IMG/VR virus record: IMGVR_UViG_3300005403_000005
Location: 26,308-90,307 of that record
From: a virus
Taxonomy: Duplodnaviria; Caudoviricetes
Strand: one strand, 5' to 3'
DNA length: 64,000 nt
Shown: piece after piece, positions 8,747-47,188 of the stretch
How positions within the stretch are numbered: the first letter of the stretch is position 1
Layout of the letters: every line of letters starts with the position of its first letter
Position numbers and translations under genes: made by a program
The notes under the pieces: generated by a model
What the model was told of the DNA's origin: nothing
Database searches by the model: none
The model's input: only the letters and a program-made list of their open reading frames with translations

Positions 8747-8822
8747 GTCCTTGTAGCTCAGTGGATAGAGCAATCGCCTCCTAAGCGATAGGTCGGCAGT
8801 TCGAGTCTGCCCAAGGACGCCA
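8747..8822 (+). tRNA. tRNA-Arg(CCT)
   Basis: Acceptor stem GTCCTTG/CAAGGAC, anticodon stem ATCGC/GCGAT with loop CTCCTAA, TTCGA T-loop, encoded CCA. Confidence 0.95.
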
Positions 8823-23453: not shown

Positions 23454-23875
23454 GCAAATACGTAGCACGATACAGCATCGCATCATCAAGTTCAAGTTCA
23501 CGGCACTATACGGTTTCATTTGCACCTGATGGCGTTGGGCAATGCTCCTGTGTCGCATGGACTCGAAAGCGCATCAGGTGCAAGCATATCGCGGAGGCAG
23601 AGCGTGTTCATCACGATGATATCGCAATGACATTCCTCAGGTACTATCGTGACATCCATAAGACACTGCCCATTACGATAGCCGCGAGAGAATGGTATAA
23701 CAAGGGAGTTGGGATTGAGGCAAATCCGCTCACCAACCAGAAGCCTGATATATGGGCTGACGAGCCACCTCCACCGAAACCACCGCGAAAGCAGAGGGGG
23801 AAGCCTGCTGTCAGCGATGATGACAAGACAGCTTTGGAACGCATTAAGGACAATGCGCGGTGGAGGCTGAAATGA
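23450..23875 (+). CDS. SWIM Zn-finger protein with C-terminal ARWRL tag
   Basis: QCSC...RCKH; ends LERIKDNARWRLK. Confidence 0.7.
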   Translation: MSKYVARYSIASSSSSSRHYTVSFAPDGVGQCSCVAWTRKRIRCKHIAEAERVHHDDIAMTFLRYYRDIHKTLPITIAAREWYNKGVGIEANPLTNQKPDIWADEPPPPKPPRKQRGKPAVSDDDKTALERIKDNARWRLK

Positions 23876-25935
23876 TTCCATTTGTTCATCTCCACCTCCA
23901 TTCGCATTATTCGACGCTCGATGGCCTGGGGAAGGTCGATGAGATTGTGAAGCGTGCAGTCGAGATTGGTTCTCCCGCTGTCGCAGTCACGGACCACGGC
24001 TCGATATCCTCGCTCCCCGAGCTGTTTGCGGAATGCGAGAAGGCGGGAATCAAGCCAATCCCCGGCTGCGAATTCTACGTTGTTGATGATGTAGAGGGGA
24101 AGAAGGGGGAGCGCAGGATTCACCTCACGGTCTGGGCGAAAAGCTGGAAGGGTGTTCAAAACATCCTTTCCCAGCTTACCGCCGCAAACAAGCAATTCTA
24201 CCATCGTCCACGGCTTACGTGGGAGCAGGCGATGCAGTTCGAGGAGTGTTGTATCGGCACTGCATGTACCGTTGGGCCGCTCATGTGCGATGACTACGAG
24301 GATAGGGTTGTGAAGCTATCCTCCGTCTACGGGGAAGACCTCTACCTTGAGATAATGCCAAACGTAATATCGGAGGATGGGCAGGATATCCAGAGCATCG
24401 CCAATAATCGTGCGATTGAGATGTCCCAGAAGTACGTCATCAAGCTGATAGCAACCAATGATGCGCATTACGTTCGCCGGGAAGACTCCTTCACCCACGA
24501 AATACTCCTCGCCATCCAGAGTGGCTCCACGCTCAAAGACCCGAACCGCTGGAAGTTCGGGAGTGACGCCTTCTACATGAGGGATGGCGCAGAGATGATT
24601 TCCGCATGCCAGAGCGTCGGTATCCACTCGTCACACACCATCTCCGCAATAGCAAACACCATTGAGCTTGCCAACAAGATAAATGTCGAGATGCCCAAGT
24701 TCGAGGTGAAGCTTCCCAGCCTCTATCCAGATGATGCCGCAGTCTTTCAGCAGAAGGTGATGGATGGCTGGAATAAGCTGATTGTGGCAACAGGGAAGGT
24801 GAATCAGGAATACAGGGAGCGTCTTGTCTATGAAATTGGCGTTATCAATAAGCTTGGTTTTATTCGCTATTTTCTTATTGTTGAGGACATCATCAATTGG
24901 TCGCGTGCCAATGGAATTATGGTTGGTCCTGGTCGTGGTTCTGCTGCTGGCTCCCTTGTGTGTTATCTCATGGGTATTACACAAGTTGACCCAATTCGTT
25001 TCGGACTATATTTTGAGCGATTCCTGAACCCGGAGCGGATTGACCTCCCTGATATCGACGTAGATTTCGCGGACAATCGCAGGGATGAGGTTTTCGCATA
25101 CATCAAGGCGAAGTATGGCGATGATAAGGTGGGGCGGATAGGGACATTCAACGCCATGCAGATTGCCGGGGCTTTCCGCGATGTCGCCAAGGTCTATGAT
25201 GTCAACCTCCTGACCGTAAACATGCTCTCCAAGCAGATAGAGGATGTCGAATCCTTTGAGAAGGTTCCGGAGCTTGCGAAATTCAAGGCGGATAATGCCG
25301 CTCTGATGGAGCAGGTCTTCAAGATAAACGGGACGATTCGCAGTCTCGGGACTCACGCATGCGGCTTGGTCATCTCCTCCGAGCCCCTCGTAAATACGGG
25401 TGCCATTGAGAAGCATGGCGATAGCGAGACAATCAACTGGGATAAGAATGTGGCTGAGAAATTCGGACTCCTGAAGGTTGATATTCTCGGACTATCGACA
25501 CTCTCCATCCTCTCCAAGGCGAGGGATATCATCAAGGTTCGTCGTGGCGTGGATATCGACTTCACATCAATCCCGCTCGACGACCAGAAGACGCTTGAGC
25601 TCTTCCGCAGGGGTGAGGGTGTCGGGGTGTTCCAGTTCGAGAACTGTATCTCTGGCGATGCGATTGTTGATGGGGTTAAGCTTAAAGACCTTTATGTGAA
25701 AAATGTCTATAAATCTATTCGCTGCCTAGATGAATCGTCAATGGTGATAAAGAAGGGCAGGGTAAAGAAGGTTGTTTACTCTGGGGTGCAGAAGGTCTTT
25801 AAGCTGAAGACGAAAAATGGCAAGGAGCTTAGGCTCACAGAGGAGCATCCAGTTTATGTAAGGGGCGCAGGGTGGGTAAAATTGAAGGATGTTAAGGAGG
25901 GTGATGAAATCCTTACGATAAGGAGGAAGTTGTGA
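23872..25935 (+). CDS. dnaE: DNA polymerase III alpha, N-terminal half, fused to N-intein
   Basis: HLHLHSHYS PHP, TDHG, TNDAHY, GRGSAAGSLV, PDIDVDF, THACG, KVDILGL, GVFQFEN then intein Cys1. Confidence 0.95.
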   Translation: MIPFVHLHLHSHYSTLDGLGKVDEIVKRAVEIGSPAVAVTDHGSISSLPELFAECEKAGIKPIPGCEFYVVDDVEGKKGERRIHLTVWAKSWKGVQNILSQLTAANKQFYHRPRLTWEQAMQFEECCIGTACTVGPLMCDDYEDRVVKLSSVYGEDLYLEIMPNVISEDGQDIQSIANNRAIEMSQKYVIKLIATNDAHYVRREDSFTHEILLAIQSGSTLKDPNRWKFGSDAFYMRDGAEMISACQSVGIHSSHTISAIANTIELANKINVEMPKFEVKLPSLYPDDAAVFQQKVMDGWNKLIVATGKVNQEYRERLVYEIGVINKLGFIRYFLIVEDIINWSRANGIMVGPGRGSAAGSLVCYLMGITQVDPIRFGLYFERFLNPERIDLPDIDVDFADNRRDEVFAYIKAKYGDDKVGRIGTFNAMQIAGAFRDVAKVYDVNLLTVNMLSKQIEDVESFEKVPELAKFKADNAALMEQVFKINGTIRSLGTHACGLVISSEPLVNTGAIEKHGDSETINWDKNVAEKFGLLKVDILGLSTLSILSKARDIIKVRRGVDIDFTSIPLDDQKTLELFRRGEGVGVFQFENCISGDAIVDGVKLKDLYVKNVYKSIRCLDESSMVIKKGRVKKVVYSGVQKVFKLKTKNGKELRLTEEHPVYVRGAGWVKLKDVKEGDEILTIRRKL

Positions 25936-26615
25936 TTGAGTATCAAGCGAAGAATGGTCGGTGGTATGTGAGGTTTTCGACTATGAGTGATGCCCACTTG
26001 ATAGAGCGATTTGGCAAGGATAGGATGTTTAGGTCGCATTTTGTATATTGTTGTGCGCATGGTTTAAGCTCCATTCCTGAAAATTGTGTAATTCACCACA
26101 ATAATCGGGATAAATCTGACGATTCTTTGTCAAATTTGACACTTCTTGGCGTCGACGAGCATATTGACATCCATAAGGTTGAAAATGCAGAAAGGGCCTC
26201 TAAGGTTCATAGGGGAAGAAAGTGTAGTCAGAAAACTATTGAGCGTATGCGAAGCGTAGCAGGAAGGCGCGGCAATAATGGCATGTGGGAGAGCAAAGTG
26301 TGCCACTCTAAGGAGACAAAAAAGAAGATGTCAGAGTTGCAGGCAGGAAAAGACAACTCTTGTTTTCGGAGTGATATCGACCCAGAGTTGGTGAGGCTGG
26401 AGTATTTTGAGGAGCCCAATATTGCGAAGATTTCAGACAAGTTTGGGTGCTCAAATATAGCGATTAGAAACCGAGTTCAAGACTTGAATGACGGCTGCGA
26501 CATTGAGTGGAGCGAAGTCCTCTCTATAGAGGAGGATGGAGAAGATGATGTTTATGATATTCAGATGGAGGGGAATTCACCATCATTTGTGGCAAATGGT
26601 GTAGTTGTGCATAAC
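25645..26615 (+). mobile_element. Split intein (IntN 25645-25935; HNH+IntC 25932-26615) in dnaE
   Basis: CISGD start, LTEEHP block B, VYDIQM...FVANGVVVHN end followed by Cys; stop/start overlap GTGA with AGGAGG RBS inside the intein. Confidence 0.85.
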
Positions 26616-28088
26616 TGTGGCATGCAGTCGCTTCTTCGTGGCATCGAGTGCTCCACTTTTGATATGGCGACTGATACGACAGCGCTCTTCCGTCCGGGCT
26701 CGCTCAATTCCGGGCAGACTGCCCAGTACGTCCGTATCGCGAAGGGCGATGAGTATGAGTATTATGAGACTCCGCTTCTCAAGCCTATCCTTGGACCAAC
26801 GAAGGGAATCCTCGTCTACCAAGAGCAAATCATGCAGATATTCGTTCAGCTCGGCGGCTTCTCATGGGCTGGCGCTGACAAGATGAGAAAGATTATCGGC
26901 AAGAAGCTCGGCAAGGATGAGTTCGAGAAGCATCGTGCTGGCTTCGTGGATGGCTGCGTGGTGAATGGGATAGATGCCAATGCTGCTTCATCCCTCTTCG
27001 ACAAGATGGCGGAATTCGCCGCTTACTCCTTCAATAAGTCGCATGCAGTGGCATACACAATGCTCTCCTTCTGGTCGATGTATCTCAAGGCCCACTTCCC
27101 AGCCGAATTCTTTGCCGCACAACTGGGGAACAGCTCGGATGAGCGGATAACGCTTCTTTCCCGCGAAGCGGAGCGGTGCGGAATCAGGATTAGGTTGCCA
27201 GATGTCAACCTATCAACAGATGAGTATGTGATTGACGAGGATGGCGCAATAGTGCCTCCGCTGGGCATCGTGAAGGGGATAGGCACAAAGGCTGTTGAGG
27301 AGATTCTCAGGGCTCGCTCCGATGGTGCATTTCTCTCTGAGGCTGATTTTCTCTCCCGCGTCCAGAAGCGTCAGTGCAATTCGAGAGTTCATGGAGCTCT
27401 TGTCCGTGCTGGTGGCTTTGAATCTCTGGGCGTGCGGGAGGACAGGGAAGAGGAGCGTGTCAAGAATTTCTCCGAACTGCTCCCCACGTACAACAATACG
27501 CCAAAGCTGGCGAAGGGTGGTGGGAATCTCAATCTCGCGGAGTTGAAGTCGATTCTCACCAATAGTGCGGTTTGTGCTTCAACTGCGAAGCGGAAATACC
27601 TCATGCCAGTATTCCCACAGAACACTGCGAAGCCGAGTATCATGATAATCAACAACCCGGTGAAGCGGGAGTACAAGCATCTGACGGCGGATAGCACAAA
27701 GTTTCTCGTCACTGAGCTGAAGGAGGTTGGGATTCTGGCAAGGGATATCTACTACACATCCCCCGTCAAGTGCTTCTTCGACCCCAAGGGTTCCCCAGCA
27801 CAACCAACAAAAGAATGCGAGGGGAAATGCACCGATTATCTCCGTCAGGAGATAGTAGCAGTGGGGCCGAAAATAATCGTCTGCTTCGCTTCAAGCCTTG
27901 TGCATCTCTTCACAGGGGATAAGAAGGCGAAGATGTCATCCCTGCAAGGTCAGGTGATATACAGCAAGCAGTTCGGCTGTTACGTTCTATTCTCCTGCTC
28001 CCCGCAGTTCGCATTCTTCAGCGAGGGTGGCGAGAATATGGATAAGTTCAGGGCGGCAATTCAGACGCTCGGTGGAATCTTCAAGTGA
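25932..28088 (+). CDS. dnaE: HNH endonuclease + C-intein + DnaE C-terminal half + UDG-like domain
   Basis: IHHNNRDKSDD..SNL HNH; NUMOD3-like HSKETKKKMS; LFRPG, YQEQIM, YSFNKSHAVAY, VKGIG; tail YYTSPVKCF...LRQEI....PKIIVCF. Confidence 0.9.
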   Translation: MIEYQAKNGRWYVRFSTMSDAHLIERFGKDRMFRSHFVYCCAHGLSSIPENCVIHHNNRDKSDDSLSNLTLLGVDEHIDIHKVENAERASKVHRGRKCSQKTIERMRSVAGRRGNNGMWESKVCHSKETKKKMSELQAGKDNSCFRSDIDPELVRLEYFEEPNIAKISDKFGCSNIAIRNRVQDLNDGCDIEWSEVLSIEEDGEDDVYDIQMEGNSPSFVANGVVVHNCGMQSLLRGIECSTFDMATDTTALFRPGSLNSGQTAQYVRIAKGDEYEYYETPLLKPILGPTKGILVYQEQIMQIFVQLGGFSWAGADKMRKIIGKKLGKDEFEKHRAGFVDGCVVNGIDANAASSLFDKMAEFAAYSFNKSHAVAYTMLSFWSMYLKAHFPAEFFAAQLGNSSDERITLLSREAERCGIRIRLPDVNLSTDEYVIDEDGAIVPPLGIVKGIGTKAVEEILRARSDGAFLSEADFLSRVQKRQCNSRVHGALVRAGGFESLGVREDREEERVKNFSELLPTYNNTPKLAKGGGNLNLAELKSILTNSAVCASTAKRKYLMPVFPQNTAKPSIMIINNPVKREYKHLTADSTKFLVTELKEVGILARDIYYTSPVKCFFDPKGSPAQPTKECEGKCTDYLRQEIVAVGPKIIVCFASSLVHLFTGDKKAKMSSLQGQVIYSKQFGCYVLFSCSPQFAFFSEGGENMDKFRAAIQTLGGIFK

Positions 28089-40405: not shown

Positions 40406-40513
40406 TTGACGAATAAACTATATAGCAATTGCTTAAATGTGTCAATAGTATTTTAATATTTAAGTCTTGATTCATAGGCATTTGCGAAATGTGCAGTTTT
40501 GGAGAGTAAAACA

Positions 40514-41047
40514 ATGGTTATACAAAATAATAGAATTTTGGTTGTCATAAATGGTCGTGCACGTGCTGGTAAGGATTATTTCGCAAGCAGCGTTGCCGCA
40601 AATTATAATGGCCATTGCGCGGTGATTTCCTCGGTCGATGAAGTGAAGCTCGCTGCCCGTCATCTTGGCTGGGATGGAGTAAAGGATGAGCGTGGGAGGC
40701 AATTCCTTTCCGACCTGAAGGATATGGCAACCCGCGAGTACGATGGTCCCATGAATAATATGGCATTGCGGATTGACAAAATATGTCGCGAGTGGCATTG
40801 GCCCATTATTTTTGTGATGATTCGGGAGCCGGAGGAAATTGCGAAGTTCTGCAAGCGCTTCCCAGATGCCCTGACGCTTCTCGTTCGCAGAGATGGACTT
40901 GAAGAATTCTCCAACCACGCTGACTCAAACGTGGAGAATTACAGCTACGATATCATCGTAGAAAACAATGGCACGTTGGAAGATTTGGTAGATAGTTCAA
41001 GGAGTTTCCTCGATTTGATGCGGCGCAAATTTTCGCCAATCGTATAA
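40514..41047 (+). CDS. P-loop kinase, dNMP-kinase-like
   Basis: VINGRARAGKD, VK..A..LGW...KDE..R.FL..L, IREPEE, NHAD. Confidence 0.65.
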   Translation: MVIQNNRILVVINGRARAGKDYFASSVAANYNGHCAVISSVDEVKLAARHLGWDGVKDERGRQFLSDLKDMATREYDGPMNNMALRIDKICREWHWPIIFVMIREPEEIAKFCKRFPDALTLLVRRDGLEEFSNHADSNVENYSYDIIVENNGTLEDLVDSSRSFLDLMRRKFSPIV

Positions 41048-41098: not shown

Positions 41099-41692
41099 AT
41101 GAGTGGTTTTGAGATGTCCAAAGAGATGAAGATTGTCATGTTCCCTACGGCGAACCTTGAGCTCGCTGACTACAACCCGAGGAGTATCTCGGCATCAGAG
41201 TTGGAGAAGTTGAAGAAGGGGTTGCAGGAATTTGGCTGCGTGCAGCCGGTGCTTGCCAATACCGCAACTGCAATCGTCAAGGGTAACGCAAAGGTTGTTG
41301 GCGGTCATCAGCGACTCACTGCGGCAAGAGCGCTGGGGTGGACGGAAATCCCTACCATCATCATCAGTGAGCCGAGCGAAAAGCGCGAGAAAGCCCTAAA
41401 TCTTGCGCTTAATAGAATCAGTGGCTCGTGGGACTTCGACAAATTGGGGAGCTTGCTCTCTGAGCTGAATGATGGCGATTTCGATGTTGAGCTTGCTGGT
41501 TTCGACGAGATTGAAATCAAGGAGCTTGATGGCATCGATGACAGCATCGCAGAGGGTGCCTTCGGTGGGTTTGAGCCAGCACGCCCCGCTGCCCCGCCCA
41601 CAGAATTCAAGACATTCGACGAGGCAATAGAGACTGACTACTGCTGTCCTAAGTGTGGCTACGCTTGGAGTGGCCGTCCTAGGGGGAATTAG
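41099..41692 (+). CDS. ParB-N-like domain protein with C-terminal Zn ribbon
   Basis: LADYNPR, FG.VQPV, VVGGHQRL, NLALNRISGSWD, CPKCGY. Confidence 0.85.
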   Translation: MSGFEMSKEMKIVMFPTANLELADYNPRSISASELEKLKKGLQEFGCVQPVLANTATAIVKGNAKVVGGHQRLTAARALGWTEIPTIIISEPSEKREKALNLALNRISGSWDFDKLGSLLSELNDGDFDVELAGFDEIEIKELDGIDDSIAEGAFGGFEPARPAAPPTEFKTFDEAIETDYCCPKCGYAWSGRPRGN

Positions 41693-41696
41693 CATC

Positions 41697-42226
41697 ATGG
41701 AAGAGGTGTGGAAAGATATCGATGGGCTTCCGTATAAGGTGAGCAATATGGGAAGGGTAGCCTCTTTTGTGTATCACAAGGATGGCAAATTGCTAAGCCA
41801 AGAAGAAATCGCGATGGTTATCTTTCAGTAGTTTTGTTTCGTGGCGATGGCAGCAATGTTCGCACAACAATGGCTATTGCCAGAATGGTTGCGAAAGCAT
41901 TTTGCGACAACCCCGACAACAAGCCTGAAGTGAACCACAAGGACGGCAATAAACAGAATAATAGCGCCGACAATCTAGAATGGTGTACTCGCGGAGAGAA
42001 TGTTAAGCATGCTTTTGATGCTGGACTACAGCAACCAACATATCATTTCACACCAGAGCAGAATAGAGAGTTTGCCAGAAAGAAGCGGAAGCTCACAGAT
42101 GAGCAGGTTAGGTCTATTCGCCGTGATACTAGGACGCTAAAACAAATTGCGGGAGATTACGGAATGTCATTTTCTAAGATTTCAGATGTTAAGCGCGGAA
42201 ATACTTACAGGGATGTGAGTCCATGA
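41697..42226 (+). pseudogene. NUMOD4-HNH endonuclease, frameshifted
   Basis: MEEVWKDI...YKVSNMGRV...KLL then frame change at about 41795 to KPRRNRDGYL...VNHKDGNKQNN..NLEWC. Confidence 0.8.
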
Positions 42227-42407: not shown

Positions 42408-42689
42408 ATGGACAAATTGGAACACATAGTAACATGCATCTCCGAGGAGTGCGCCGAGATTTCCCAGATAGCGAGTAAGTCTCTCCGCTTCGGCCTTAAC
42501 GACACATATGAGGAGAAATCCAACATCGAGCGGCTCAATGAGGAAATCAATGACCCGATTGCCGTGATTGAACTTCTGAGCGAGGAGTGCGATGTGGTCA
42601 TCAAAGTGAATGACCGACACATCGAGGAGAAGAAGGCGAAAGTCCTCCGCTACATGCGTTACGCAAGGGAACGCGGGACGCTAGAATGA
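42408..42689 (+). CDS. MazG-like nucleotide pyrophosphohydrolase family protein
   Basis: EECAEISQIASKSLRFG...LNEEIND pattern. Confidence 0.6.
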   Translation: MDKLEHIVTCISEECAEISQIASKSLRFGLNDTYEEKSNIERLNEEINDPIAVIELLSEECDVVIKVNDRHIEEKKAKVLRYMRYARERGTLE

Positions 42690-43882
42690 GCAAGATTGTC
42701 GGTGTTGTGGGGGTGGGAACGAACGTCAGCTACAAACCACGATGGCAGTCGCCACATTTGCCATCCACGACGATACTTGCAAATGGACCCCTGAAGCCGG
42801 GGGATAGCGGGTGGGTGCAGATAGGGGAGTATGACCCGGAAGAGGACAAGAGGATGGCGCAGGAGAGTGGAGTTGTAAAGCCTCCATATACGATACCAAC
42901 GATGGAGGAGATACGTGCGATACCGTGGAATGGATTTAATGTTGTTTCTACGTTTTCTGGCGGTGGAGGTAGTTGCCTTGGGTATCGTATGGCTGGTTTT
43001 AGGGTGCTTTGGGCAAACGAGTTTGTCGAAGCAGCCCAAGACACATACAAGGCGAATCACCCGAATAGCATCCTTGACACGCGGGATATCCGGACGATTA
43101 AACCCGAGGAGATTCTGGCGGCGACGGGACTCAAAGTAGGGGAGCTTGACATCTTCGATGGCTCCCCTCCATGTTCCGCATTCTCCACGGCTGGGAAGCG
43201 CGAGAAGGGTTGGGGGAAGACGAAGAACTATTCTGATGGAAAGGAACAGGTCGTAGATGACCTCTTCTTCGAGTACGTCCGGATACTGAAGGGGCTTCAA
43301 CCCAAGGTGTTCATCGCGGAGAATGTCTCCGGCTTGGTGAAGGGCGCTGCAAAGGGCTACTTCCTGATGATTCTCAAGGCGCTCAAGGATTGCGGCTACT
43401 CCGTAGAGGCGAAGCTCCTCAATGCAGAGTGGCTTGGTGTTCCCCAGACAAGACTGCGGGTTATATTCGTTGGGGTGCGGAATGATTTGGTCGATGAGCG
43501 GGGCGTATCTCCTGTTCATCCTCAACCCTTCCCGTATCGCTACTCTCTCAGGGAGGCAATTGCTGACCTTGAGTGGTATCGTGCCGGGGGCTACTTCGAC
43601 AGATGGAAATCAGCAGATGAGCCCTACGGGACTGTACCCGCAGATGGACATCGACTGCTCTACTCGGCATACATGAGCGCCAATGGCTACGTGATGGATA
43701 AGGCGGGCGATAAGCGGAAGCTGATGATTCCGGAAGTGAAGCGCCTCTGCTCCTTCCCAGATGACTTCATCTTGACTGGAAATGAGGCCCAACAATGGGA
43801 ACGCTGTGGACGCTCAGTGCCGCCACTGATGGCAAGGGAGATTGGCTTGTCTGTGCTCAATGGCATATTGAGGAAACTATGA
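42686..43882 (+). CDS. C5-cytosine DNA methyltransferase homolog, predicted carboxymethyltransferase (CmoX-like)
   Basis: FSGGGG, DGSPPC, ENV, PQTRLR; motif X reads GRSVPP instead of GNSVPP. Confidence 0.85.
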   Translation: MSKIVGVVGVGTNVSYKPRWQSPHLPSTTILANGPLKPGDSGWVQIGEYDPEEDKRMAQESGVVKPPYTIPTMEEIRAIPWNGFNVVSTFSGGGGSCLGYRMAGFRVLWANEFVEAAQDTYKANHPNSILDTRDIRTIKPEEILAATGLKVGELDIFDGSPPCSAFSTAGKREKGWGKTKNYSDGKEQVVDDLFFEYVRILKGLQPKVFIAENVSGLVKGAAKGYFLMILKALKDCGYSVEAKLLNAEWLGVPQTRLRVIFVGVRNDLVDERGVSPVHPQPFPYRYSLREAIADLEWYRAGGYFDRWKSADEPYGTVPADGHRLLYSAYMSANGYVMDKAGDKRKLMIPEVKRLCSFPDDFILTGNEAQQWERCGRSVPPLMAREIGLSVLNGILRKL

Positions 43883-44091
43883 TAATGATAGAAATCAACT
43901 CTTGGATGATTCCGCTGGCAGTCTCCCTCATTACGTCATTCCTCTTGTTTCAAGAGGCCAATAGAGTCTCAAGTTCAGGATTCTTGGGGAATGCCCTTGA
44001 GATGATGTTCGCCATGATAGGCTCGGTTATATTCGGCTTGGTTGTGTGGCTTGTGTGGGCTCTCGGCAAGTTATTGGGATGGTGGATATGA
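43879..44091 (+). CDS. Small membrane protein
   Basis: ATGA overlaps on both sides; two hydrophobic segments. Confidence 0.6.
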   Translation: MIMIEINSWMIPLAVSLITSFLLFQEANRVSSSGFLGNALEMMFAMIGSVIFGLVVWLVWALGKLLGWWI

Positions 44092-44960
44092 TTCAAAGGA
44101 TATACGATAAGTTGAAGTATGAGTATCTGAGAGCCGCCACAAACGGCTCTTCTTTCTTGAAGAGCAATCCGTCTAAGCAATCCCTTGTGTTGAAGTACGC
44201 ACAAGAGGATGTTCCGGAGCTCTTTGTCAATGTCATGGCGGCAAAGCTCTCTGATGGGACTTGTGGAGCCAAGGTCATCCGGGTCGATGAGAAGACTGGG
44301 AATACGACCTCATACACCACTGTCTATAAGCCTGACGGGACTGCGATGATTGTGGAGAGTGCCGACCTGACACGGTTGCGCTGCGGCATGATGGCGGCAC
44401 TCTCCGCAGAGTTCTACCTCGGTCGGTCTGCTCTCAACAGCGAAACGAGGGTGGGCTTCATCGGGAACGGTAGGACGAACATCAAGACTGCACAAGTGTT
44501 CTTTGAACTTTTTGGCATCCGGAAATTCGTCATTTGTGGGCACCCCAGTTTCCCCGCCCGTAATTACGATAAGTTCATCGAGTATGGCAACGTCGAGGTC
44601 GCAAGCAGGGATAATGGTTACGAGCCGCTACGCAAGTGCGATATCGTCATCTCCTGCACAAATACTGTCAGTGAATGCGACATCCTTGAGTATGAACAAC
44701 TCAAGGGACCGAGGCTTTTCATCTCTCAAGATGGGGGCTACATCTTCGGCGAATCCTTCCGCAAGGAATGTGGCACATTCAGCGACCATCCGACACAACT
44801 TCTCCATGCTGCCCCTCACGAATTCCCGTGGGACAAGGGGGAGCTGAGTGTAGTCTTCCCGATTGAGATGCTGGAAAAGCTTCCTGTCTCGGATAAAGTC
44901 CCTGCGGTCTATCTCTATGGCATTGCGCTTGCGGATGTCGTAGTGGCAATTGGGGGTTGA
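44088..44960 (+). CDS. Ornithine cyclodeaminase / mu-crystallin family protein (divergent)
   Basis: LTRLRCGMMAALSA (cf. LTxxRTAAxSA), VGFIGNGRT Rossmann loop, CDIVISCT. Confidence 0.7.
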   Translation: MIQRIYDKLKYEYLRAATNGSSFLKSNPSKQSLVLKYAQEDVPELFVNVMAAKLSDGTCGAKVIRVDEKTGNTTSYTTVYKPDGTAMIVESADLTRLRCGMMAALSAEFYLGRSALNSETRVGFIGNGRTNIKTAQVFFELFGIRKFVICGHPSFPARNYDKFIEYGNVEVASRDNGYEPLRKCDIVISCTNTVSECDILEYEQLKGPRLFISQDGGYIFGESFRKECGTFSDHPTQLLHAAPHEFPWDKGELSVVFPIEMLEKLPVSDKVPAVYLYGIALADVVVAIGG

Positions 44961-44961
44961 G

Positions 44962-45861
44962 ATGGCTTTGAAAGAGATGGTTGCTACAAAGGAAGAGTTG
45001 GCCATATACGAAAGGATGCGCCACTCAATCACGGACTCAGACATTGGAGCTTTCCGCAACCTCTGCCTGAAGCGGATTGAGCAGATTGACCCCAATAGAA
45101 ATGCGGCGCTTGCACTCTCCGGTGGCACGGATAGCGTGACGATACTCTTCTCGATGTTGGCGATGGGGAGGAAGCCTCGGTGTTACACGTTCCATGTCGA
45201 TGGGATTGTCTCCACTGACCTCCTCTCCTCGCGCAACCTGTGCAAGCACTTTGGCCTTGAGCTCGTCGAGCTGACGCTTCCCAGCGACCCTGACGCCATT
45301 GCTGGGGATATCCGGCAGTACATCAACCACTGCCACACGATTAAGAAGACGGTCGTGCAGTGCATGCACCCGTGGCTCTATATCTATCCGGCAATGGCAG
45401 AGCGGGGCGATACGCTCATCCTCAATGGCTTGGGCGGGGATGACCTGTACTGCAATCAGCGCAAGGTGAATGTGGCGCAACAGCAATTCGGCGAGGCGGC
45501 CATCATCCCGTGGCGCAAGGTGTGGTCGGATGATATCAAGTTCAGTGCGGCGAATATCATCCTCTGGGGCGATACGGAATTCGGGATTACCAATACCGAC
45601 TTCTACAAGTTCCCAGAGATGGAAGAGTGGTTCCTTCAGTTCCCGATTCGCTCCCTCCATCGTCCCGTCGAGAAGTATCCCTCCGCAGCCGCCTTCAAGG
45701 AGATGTACGCCAAGGGGAACTTCTACAGGAAGCATGACAGCTACCAGATTAACAGTGGGCTCAAGAAGACCCACGAGAAGCTCCTCGACACGCCGTACAA
45801 TCTGAAGGGGGCGAAGGATATGATTACCATCTACAATGATTTCGCCAATGGGAGGCTGTAA
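44962..45861 (+). CDS. Asparagine-synthase-like PP-loop ATP-dependent amide ligase, no glutaminase domain
   Basis: ALSGGTDS PP-loop; LNGLGGDDLY; about 300 aa. Confidence 0.75.
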   Translation: MALKEMVATKEELAIYERMRHSITDSDIGAFRNLCLKRIEQIDPNRNAALALSGGTDSVTILFSMLAMGRKPRCYTFHVDGIVSTDLLSSRNLCKHFGLELVELTLPSDPDAIAGDIRQYINHCHTIKKTVVQCMHPWLYIYPAMAERGDTLILNGLGGDDLYCNQRKVNVAQQQFGEAAIIPWRKVWSDDIKFSAANIILWGDTEFGITNTDFYKFPEMEEWFLQFPIRSLHRPVEKYPSAAAFKEMYAKGNFYRKHDSYQINSGLKKTHEKLLDTPYNLKGAKDMITIYNDFANGRL

Positions 45862-46634
45862 TGGGTGGCGGAGATATGAGAGTTGATTCTGTGATTCCGG
45901 GCGAGAAGTGGGAGTTCGACGCAGAGGTCACAGCCTGTTTCGACAATATGCTGGAACGCTCGATACCCGATTACCACAATATGCGAGAGATGTGTTTCAA
46001 TGTTGGCTCCCGCTACGTGCAGCCGGGAACCTTCATCATCGATTTGGGCTGTAGCAGGGGCGAAGCGCTTGCGCCATTCGTGGAGCGCTACGGCACCGCA
46101 AATCGCTTTATCGGGGTGGAAGTATCTTCCCCTATGGCTGAAGCTGCAAAAGCTCGCTACGGTCATTTGTGTCACCCTGATGCAAATCCCGTCGTGGATA
46201 TCCAAACCCTTGATTTGCGGCGTGAATATCCCCTTCCGGTCAATCCGATGAATGGCTGGGAGGGGCGGGGCTCTTCGCTCGTCATGAGCATCCTGACGCT
46301 TCAATTCACGCCAATAGAGCATCGCCAGCGGATACTGCTCGACATCTACCGCAACATGGAGTTGGGTGGCGCACTCATCCTGGTCGAGAAGGTTCTTGGC
46401 GCTACGGCGGAGTTGGATTCGCTGATGGTGGATGCGTACTACGAGAAAAAGCGGGCAAATGGCTATTCGCAGGAGGATATCGACCGGAAGCGGCTCTCGC
46501 TCGAAGGTGTCCTCGTCCCGGTCACGGCACATTGGAACGAGGAGCTTCTGCGGGGCGCTGGCTTCCGTCACGTGGATTGCTTCTGGCGAAATCTGAACTT
46601 CGCCGGATGGGTTGCGATTAAGACGAGGGAGTAG
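45861..46634 (+). CDS. cmoA: Carboxy-S-adenosylmethionine synthase (CmoA-like)
   Basis: WEFDAEV..CFDNMLERSIPDY, DLGCSRG, LTLQF, GGALILVEK, GYSQEDIDRKR.SLEGVL, FWR..NF. Confidence 0.9.
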   Translation: MGGGDMRVDSVIPGEKWEFDAEVTACFDNMLERSIPDYHNMREMCFNVGSRYVQPGTFIIDLGCSRGEALAPFVERYGTANRFIGVEVSSPMAEAAKARYGHLCHPDANPVVDIQTLDLRREYPLPVNPMNGWEGRGSSLVMSILTLQFTPIEHRQRILLDIYRNMELGGALILVEKVLGATAELDSLMVDAYYEKKRANGYSQEDIDRKRLSLEGVLVPVTAHWNEELLRGAGFRHVDCFWRNLNFAGWVAIKTRE

Positions 46635-46639
46635 AAGAG

Positions 46640-47188
46640 ATGGCAGAGGAGAAGAGGGAACGCACACTCCCAGTCATTGTCAACGAGAAGACGGGGTGCT
46701 GGGAATTCCAAGGGACGCGCAATCCCAAGGGATATGGCTTGGTGAAGGTGAAGGGTGAGAAATGGCTCGCCCATCGCCTTTCTTATATGCACTACAAGGG
46801 ACCAATCCCGAAGGGGATGCTCGTCTGTCATTCTTGTGATAATCCGCCGTGCGTCAACCCGAATCATCTGTTCCTCGGCTCCAATCGTCTCAACATGATT
46901 GATATGGCGATGAAGGGGCGGGGCGGGAAGAAGAAGGGCGCTACGCACATTCAGTCGAAGTTCATTGACCCAGTGGAGTTCCAGAAAGCGCTTGACGAGC
47001 TGGGGCAGGATTATGATGCGCTGGCAGAGCGTTTCGGCTGTAGCTATGGCTACGTTATCCGCTATCTGCGGGGCGAAACGTGGCAGAAGTTCACACCAAG
47101 CAAACCGATGATTGTGGGGCGACGCAAGAAGCCGATTGGACCACCCACCAAGGATGCAAGTGTTGAAAAAAGCGAGAATCAGTCATAA
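46640..47188 (+). CDS. HNH endonuclease
   Basis: CWEFQG...GYG...AHRLSY...VCHSCDNPPCVNPNHL. Confidence 0.9.
   Translation: MAEEKRERTLPVIVNEKTGCWEFQGTRNPKGYGLVKVKGEKWLAHRLSYMHYKGPIPKGMLVCHSCDNPPCVNPNHLFLGSNRLNMIDMAMKGRGGKKKGATHIQSKFIDPVEFQKALDELGQDYDALAERFGCSYGYVIRYLRGETWQKFTPSKPMIVGRRKKPIGPPTKDASVEKSENQS

Follow-up and report, generated by a model that had tools for sequence, protein, structure and literature searches.

The stretch of DNA analysed here (the window; 64,000 nucleotides, bases 26308-90307 of the 90,307-bp IMG/VR virus record IMGVR_UViG_3300005403_000005, which has direct terminal repeats) carries a compact cassette of an uncultured phage that probably encodes the CmoA-CmoX-CmoY pathway of cytosine hypermodification, with an extra enzyme of the OCD/mu-crystallin type acting at the ligase step. 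We hold the assignment of the CmoA/CmoX/CmoY core with high confidence and slightly favour the view that the OCD-like enzyme determines the amine attached to the base. The core pathway is correct but not new, as it was published in December 2025 by Yang et al. (Nat Commun; PMC12783734), whose work does not describe the OCD-like partner of CmoY; its text mentions no cyclodeaminase, crystallin, dehydrogenase or reductase. Additionally, a full-text literature search found no paper tying cyclodeaminases to phage hypermodification or the OCD family to DNA modification. The genes of the cassette are as follows:

42686..43882, + strand: candidate CmoX-type DNA cytosine-C5 carboxymethyltransferase, 398 amino acids (aa); Pfam DNA_methylase, E 9.5e-57; TIGR00675
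43879..44091, + strand: open reading frame (ORF) of 70 aa with two hydrophobic helices (membrane ORF); ATGA overlaps at both ends
44088..44960, + strand: NAD(P)-type enzyme of the OCD/mu-crystallin family, 290 aa; 27.3 bits for Pfam PF02423 (cut-off 24)
44962..45861, + strand: CmoY-type AMP-forming amide ligase, 299 aa; Pfam Asn_synthase, E 1.9e-9
45861..46634, + strand: CmoA-type carboxy-SAM synthase, 257 aa; TIGR00740, E 3.5e-43, 148 bits

These genes are tightly packed. The ATGA overlaps lie at 43879-43882 (cmoX and the 70-aa ORF) and 44088-44091 (the 70-aa ORF and the OCD-like gene), a single nucleotide at 44961 separates the OCD-like gene from cmoY, and cmoY is translationally coupled to cmoA through a TAATG at 45859-45863. 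An earlier reading of this DNA from its letters alone (the original prediction) had described the same packing, with ATGA and TAATG overlaps and one 1-nt gap, and the junctions are as it stated; it left undescribed the three genes between cmoX and cmoA, namely the 70-aa ORF, the OCD-like enzyme and the CmoY-type ligase.

The pathway described by Yang et al. is that of Synechococcus phage S-B43, whose proteins are referred to here as SpCmoA, SpCmoX and SpCmoY. In this phage, CmoA makes carboxy-S-adenosylmethionine (carboxy-SAM, Cx-SAM), CmoX uses it to write 5-carboxymethylcytosine (5cxmC) at GC sites, and CmoY, which resembles asparagine synthase, adds glycine (PMC12783734). The glycyl amide was found in the phage DNA, and 5cxmC was undetectable once CmoY was present (PMC12783734). 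The authors also collected, from viral data including IMG/VR, 5,615 candidate CmoX, 4,257 CmoA and 2,251 ligases, as well as 1,660 ParB-domain neighbours; residues binding the carboxylate of an alpha-amino acid are retained in the largest ligase cluster and in several of the smaller ones, and the second-largest cluster carries a glutaminase domain (PMC12783734). Homologues of all three S-B43 enzymes are present in the window (S-B43 is locus L002 among the loci that we compared), with 40% identity for CmoX, 30% for CmoA and 24% for CmoY, and the two cassettes share the SPPC cysteine, the arginine that binds Cx-SAM, a ParB-domain neighbour and a ligase devoid of glutaminase domain. By contrast, the gene order is cmoA-cmoY-cmoX in S-B43 and cmoX...cmoY-cmoA here, where the OCD-like gene and the 70-aa membrane ORF stand between cmoX and cmoY.

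CmoX is the only C5-methyltransferase homologue in the whole 90-kb phage record. Its translation shows FSGGGGS, DGSPPCSAF, AENV and PQTRLR, and so contains the SPPC catalytic motif that Yang et al. used as a criterion for CmoX (PMC12783734). Bases 43796-43828 translate to WERCGRSVPPL, so that motif X reads G-R-S-V-P-P, with the codon of Arg376 at 43811-43813. A phmmer search of all PDB sequences gave SpCmoX (8YF3) as the best match, with an E value of 1.6e-75, about 48 orders of magnitude ahead of the next one, M.HaeIII (5e-27); the identity to SpCmoX is 40% over 354 columns (E 3e-85). In the phmmer alignment, counted by hand, Arg376 stands opposite Arg350 of SpCmoX and, in M.HaeIII, opposite the Asn of GNAVP. 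The original prediction, which had recognised a C5-methyltransferase by its FSGGGG, SPPC and ENV motifs and had supposed that the Arg of its GRSVPP motif takes the place of the motif-X Asn, is thus borne out by both translation and alignment. In SpCmoX, R350 replaces Asn304 of HhaI and contacts the carboxymethyl group of Cx-SAM; the enzyme took only Cx-SAM, and the R350N mutant was inactive with either cofactor (PMC12783734). An engineered relative, M.MpeI N374K, is cited in the same paper as showing that a basic residue at the motif-X Asn permits the use of Cx-SAM by a C5-methyltransferase. The window CmoX resembles it in having a basic residue at this position and differs from it in that M.MpeI N374K is an engineered protein, with Lys rather than Arg and a CG target; our comparison with M.MpeI is a phmmer match to 4DKJ that extends over residues 153-274 only. 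The variable region of the window CmoX, between motifs VIII and IX, is shorter than that of SpCmoX and does not align with it; consequently, the GC specificity of the S-B43 enzyme is not to be assumed here.

Other features of CmoX proteins vary among phages. The window protein has an N-terminal extension of about 80 residues (window 42686-42934) that is absent from SpCmoX and is kept in the second CmoX of L006 (VVxVGxNxSYKPxWxS...LPS). This locus encodes two tandem CmoX paralogues (L006:3664-6011), both with the motif-X Arg (GRAVPP and GRSVPP) and with differing variable regions, which suggests two target specificities. The CmoX genes of L014 (5830-8052) and L019 (4423-6621) are about double the normal length, and the product of the former carries Hint/intein and LAGLIDADG matches, making it an intein-containing CmoX.

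The CmoA homologue scores 148 bits against TIGR00740, whose cut-off is 193.3; as the experimentally active SpCmoA reaches only 115.6 bits, this cut-off is ill-suited to phage CmoAs. The best PDB matches of the window protein are E. coli CmoA (4GEK, E 2e-31, and 4IWN) and YecO (1IM8), and its identity to SpCmoA is 30%. Opposite its R211, 4GEK has chain position 213, or native Arg199 once the 14-residue tag is subtracted (counted by hand), the residue that forms a salt bridge with the cofactor carboxylate in E. coli CmoA (PMC3663124). The profile and PDB sequence matches, together with the conservation of this Arg, agree with the earlier claim that the operon ends in a CmoA-like gene. Although the protein belongs to the fold family of the CmoA that acts with CmoB in the cmo5U modification of E. 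coli tRNA, CmoB was looked for in the phage and is not present, which makes a tRNA role for the phage CmoA unlikely; the acceptor here would be DNA cytosine, through CmoX. Chorismate mutase (PF01817), sought as a phage-encoded source of prephenate, is also absent from the phage. Taken at the level of sequence, these observations support the pairing of a candidate CmoX-type carboxymethyltransferase with a CmoA-type Cx-SAM synthase, and the natural phage CmoA/CmoX pair with a key Arg that the original prediction mentioned does exist in the literature (PMC12783734). As a side observation, the BLAST alignment of SpCmoA (L002:2443-3138) places a Glu opposite Arg199 of E. coli CmoA and Arg211 of the window protein, with an Arg four residues on; the S-B43 enzyme may make its contact with the cofactor carboxylate one helical turn away.

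The gene directly upstream of cmoA encodes the CmoY-type ligase. The PP-loop reads LSGGTDS, the PF00733 match covers residues 47-164 and there is no glutaminase domain. The protein matches SpCmoY with an E value of 2e-22 and has 53 close relatives that are 37-72% identical to it; phmmer gave no match among PDB sequences. As in AsnB-type AMP-forming synthetases (asparagine synthetase B, 1CT9, and beta-lactam synthetase, 1MC1), there is a PP-loop synthetase domain, for which a fold match comes from the CmoY half of a natural fusion protein (see below). In contrast to these enzymes, CmoY has no N-terminal glutaminase domain, and its acyl substrate, by homology to SpCmoY, would be the side chain of a DNA base. 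Since the operon also encodes a translationally coupled CmoY homologue, this phage most likely makes 5cxmC only as an intermediate. The original prediction had taken 5cxmC to be the end product, a claim left unsupported by the CmoY homologue, the conversion to an amide in S-B43 and the conserved OCD-like partner.

This partner is the most distinctive component of the cassette. An AlphaFold2 model of the OCD-like protein, built on 17 relatives, has a predicted local distance difference test (pLDDT) score of 92 and a predicted template-modelling (pTM) score of 0.92. When it was compared with the PDB using Foldseek, the best 29 matches listed were all members of the OCD/mu-crystallin family, aligned over the whole length with template-modelling scores of about 0.7 and E values of about 1e-13, and a search of the ESM Atlas agrees with this fold. 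The matches include ornithine and lysine cyclodeaminases (1X7D, 5YU0), ketimine reductases (2I99, 6T3E), amino-acid dehydrogenases such as the archaeal alanine dehydrogenase 1OMO, and SbnB (4M54) and CmnK (7CXS), which form L-2,3-diaminopropionate (L-Dap). Among 109 relatives, K30, K62, T95, R98, G126, G128, D215, R225 and D283 are at least 90% conserved, K62 and R98 being invariant. R98 aligns with the Arg of the family TxxRT motif in 8J1C and 1OMO, which binds the substrate carboxylate, and the Rossmann motif is GFIGNGRTN. The protein has in common with the family its fold over the whole length, the Rossmann GxGxxN and, where the substrate carboxylate is bound, the Lys/Arg pair. Such a set of residues would be expected if the enzyme is active and takes an alpha-amino, alpha-imino or alpha-keto acid as its substrate.

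Despite this likeness, the protein is just 12-18% identical to any solved member of the family and belongs to a separate subfamily. The NCBIfam equivalogs are matched far below their cut-offs (for instance, 21 against 327 bits for SbnB). In a profile search of 1.84 billion representative sequences, 98 clusters were recovered at E<=1e-30, while canonical OCDs appeared only near E 1e-9; because of this gap, we consider the OCD-like proteins a small separate branch. A tblastn search of 50,697 deposited phage genomes gave no match to the protein, nor did a single-sequence scan of IMG/VR, where relatives were found by profile-based scans alone.

The genomic position of these relatives is highly conserved. 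In about ten phage lineages, the OCD-like gene either separates cmoX from cmoY or stands next to them. Relatives were found on 11 IMG/VR contigs, and the order is ParB-CmoX-OCD-CmoY-(0 or 1 gene)-CmoA on every one of these. The same core recurs in L006, L010, L014 and L016-L018 (assemblies) and in L038, L042-L047 and L056 (metagenomes); a 4.5-kb contig, L039, has ParB-OCD-CmoA. Every CmoX of these OCD-bearing cassettes keeps the motif-X Arg (GR[SAM]VPP), and the identity of their ligases to the window CmoY goes from 65% down to barely detectable. In one sublineage, the two proteins are fused: three OCD::CmoY proteins of 569-573 aa, 73% identical to each other and from independent assemblies, each sit in a ParB-CmoX-fusion-LPG_synthase_C-CmoA cassette. 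An assembly error was considered for the fusion in L041 and rejected, given that the three fused proteins, at 73% identity, come from separate assemblies. In a model of the 569-aa fusion (pLDDT 92.5), both domains are confident and the pTM of 0.60 leaves their arrangement undefined; fold matches confirm both halves, the C-terminal one resembling beta-lactam synthetase and AsnB. Additionally, the OCD-like gene of three other phage contigs (L011, L012 and L013) abuts a PAPS_reduct-like PP-loop ATPase of about 265 aa (WSGGKDS) that has no detectable similarity to CmoY outside the PP-loop. Given that the OCD-like gene neighbours genes for PP-loop adenylating enzymes from two different families and is fused to one of them, its job should lie at the ligation step, and in the simplest version the enzyme makes or hands over the nucleophile.

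In the pathway that we propose, with the chemistry of the first three enzymes taken from Yang et al. (2025), CmoA would convert SAM and host prephenate to carboxy-SAM, from which CmoX, through the Arg376 that replaces the motif-X Asn, would move the carboxymethyl group onto C5 of cytosines in the phage DNA. The glutaminase-less CmoY-like ligase would then adenylate the carboxyl group of 5cxmC and couple it to an amine. The OCD-like enzyme, whose gene stands directly upstream of the ligase gene, would act as the ligase partner and most likely make the amine nucleophile, or deliver it, starting from a free alpha-amino, alpha-imino or alpha-keto acid. The base that results would probably be an amide of 5cxmC, in which the amine need not be glycine; indeed, glycine as the amine of CmoY is uncertain here, given the low identity to SpCmoY and the OCD partner. 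A stronger formulation, to which we give an even chance, is that phages have recruited this OCD branch as a dedicated amine supplier for PP-loop adenylating enzymes acting on DNA bases, and that CmoY attaches here a non-glycine amine (a diamino acid, a cyclic imino acid or ammonia delivered by the enzyme), which would constitute an undescribed hypermodification. As for its function, the in vitro result with HhaI reported by Yang et al. suggests that the modification might serve against restriction (PMC12783734).

The product might instead be that of S-B43, with CmoY ligating glycine to give 5-glycylcarboxymethylcytosine (5gcxmC) and the OCD-like enzyme tailoring the base after ligation or acting outside the pathway. 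The window CmoY is a true homologue of SpCmoY, residues binding the carboxylate of an alpha-amino acid are kept in the largest and several smaller ligase clusters (PMC12783734), and cassettes without the OCD-like gene exist, all of which would fit this explanation. We nevertheless consider it unlikely, as its fusion to CmoY and its strict juxtaposition with two unrelated PP-loop ATPases speak for a task of the OCD-like enzyme at the ligase step, glycine is abundant and requires no dedicated supply, and the window CmoY belongs to a subfamily distant from SpCmoY (identities of 37-72% inside the subfamily, 24% to SpCmoY). An equally doubtful proposal makes the OCD-like enzyme an ammonia donor, by cyclodeamination or oxidative deamination, for the glutaminase-less ligase, with 5-carbamoylmethylcytosine as the product. 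The cyclodeaminases of the OCD family release NH3, and the fold matches to 1X7D and 5YU0 are with such enzymes; besides, the 299-aa CmoY consists of the synthetase domain only, and having the two domains in one protein would lend itself to channelling. The glutaminase domain of the second-largest ligase cluster indicates that amidation with ammonia is natural elsewhere (PMC12783734). On the other hand, a plain carboxamide offers no obvious handle for the aminopropyl-transferase, aminoacyl-transferase and ATP-grasp genes of the variant cassettes described below, and we know of no precedent for an ammonia donor in the OCD family.

Two other explanations are less probable still. That bare 5cxmC is the mature base and that the two middle genes are unrelated passengers, which amounts to the reading of the original prediction, is quite improbable: although there are 5,615 CmoX candidates against just 2,251 ligases, 5cxmdC was undetectable in S-B43 with CmoY present (PMC12783734), translational coupling ties cmoY and the OCD-like gene into the operon, and many lineages have both in this position. 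Least probable of all is an ordinary methyltransferase producing 5-methylcytosine, with CmoA serving tRNA cmo5U modification or SAM depletion. The C5-methyltransferase motifs are canonical overall, but SpCmoX used only Cx-SAM and its R350N mutant was dead with both cofactors (PMC12783734), the window CmoX is 40% identical to it and has the same Arg, as has every CmoX of the related cassettes, and the phage has no CmoB. It was also considered that the OCD-like enzyme might recycle phenylpyruvate, the by-product of CmoA, to phenylalanine for ligation; this candidate was rated low, as the enzyme is also present in modules devoid of CmoA.

Several observations weigh against a four-enzyme pathway in which the OCD-like enzyme serves the ligase. 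The identity of the window CmoY to SpCmoY is only 24%, and a maximum-likelihood tree of 15 CmoY sequences is unresolved, with long branches, the OCD-linked ligases not forming one clade in it although a single clade is not excluded. OCD-like relatives also occur on their own in bacterial chromosomes, where they have no conserved neighbours, so the branch is not confined to DNA modification. Finally, the OCD-like gene is absent from some cassettes with a related CmoY (L019, L020, S-B43 and Staphylococcus phage F1), which means that the ligase reaction itself can proceed in its absence.

Yang et al. left open which amines other than glycine join 5cxmC, and the set formed by CmoA, CmoX, the OCD-like enzyme and CmoY, which is both compact and conserved and includes fused members in some phages, offers a concrete route to the answer. 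If the OCD-like enzyme does supply the amine, the known repertoire of natural DNA bases is enlarged, a family of metabolic enzymes acquires its first link to DNA modification, and there is a hint at the chemistry of the phage modules that combine ParB with PAPS-reductase-like proteins. If the product is 5gcxmC, the locus is one more member of the published system.

The latter modules were examined in the three contigs mentioned above. In L011 (3558-9054) and L013 (4306-10021), the genes encode an ABC permease, an NMT1-like substrate-binding protein, the OCD-like enzyme, the PAPS-reductase-like ATPase, a ParB-like protein, a second PAPS-reductase-like protein and a ParB_N protein; L012 (4888-10117) has the same module without the permease and substrate-binding genes. 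This arrangement looks like another DNA-base modification system sharing the OCD-like partner.

Some of the variant CmoX cassettes contain an extra gene, located between cmoY and cmoA or cmoX. The encoded proteins are a fusion of AdoMet decarboxylase and spermidine synthase, found in two lineages (for instance, L022:8789-9934), an aminoacyl-tRNA-type transferase of the LPG_synthase_C type (L024:8515-9396 and relatives) and a Ddl-like ATP-grasp enzyme, similar to D-Ala-D-Ala ligase (L018:7888-8720). These cassettes may mark more elaborate cytosine adducts, and their enzymes suggest that additional amine or carboxyl functions can be present on the group added to the base, with which a diamino acid would fit better than glycine or ammonia. 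In Staphylococcus phage vB-SscS-F1, the methyltransferase beside the CmoA- and CmoY-like genes (L003:5810-6817) has neither SPPC nor GRxVPP, and the acceptor enzyme of this cassette may not be a CmoX-type protein.

Regarding the 70-aa ORF, it has no Pfam or NCBIfam match, and a phmmer search of the related loci gave no counterpart, so that it is known only from the present phage. The cassette is flanked by the following genes:

41099..41692, + strand: ParB_N-domain protein with a Cys-rich C-terminal tail; Pfam PF02195, E 4e-8
41655..42226, + strand: homing-endonuclease-like ORFs, in two pieces; NUMOD4, E 9e-8, and HNH_3, E 1e-8
46640..47188, + strand: HNH endonuclease gene, immediately 3' of cmoA; Pfam HNH_3, E 4.9e-10

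The association of ParBc with CmoX cassettes was noted by Yang et al. (PMC12783734), and ParB homologues lie immediately 5' of cmoX in L006, L014, L016, L017, L019, L022-L032 and L042-L047. While parB directly abuts cmoX in most related loci, the homing-endonuclease-like ORFs are inserted between the two genes here. An HNH gene directly downstream of cmoA is also found in L010. In front of parB, at 40499-41047, there is a dNMP (deoxynucleoside monophosphate)-kinase-like gene with a weak match to PF21448 (E 8.6e-4, below the cut-off), and the order DNMK-ParB-CmoX is also present in L006.

No close cultured phage was found by comparison of DnaE, for which identities were at most 37%. The replication genes of the window encode a DnaB-like helicase, a split DnaE-type polymerase, SbcCD-like nuclease subunits, NrdD and PhoH. 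The polymerase is encoded in two ORFs (window 23860-28088), the second of which begins with an HNH-endonuclease-like region according to PHROG matches, and there is one tRNA gene, tRNA-Arg(CCT), at window 8747-8822.

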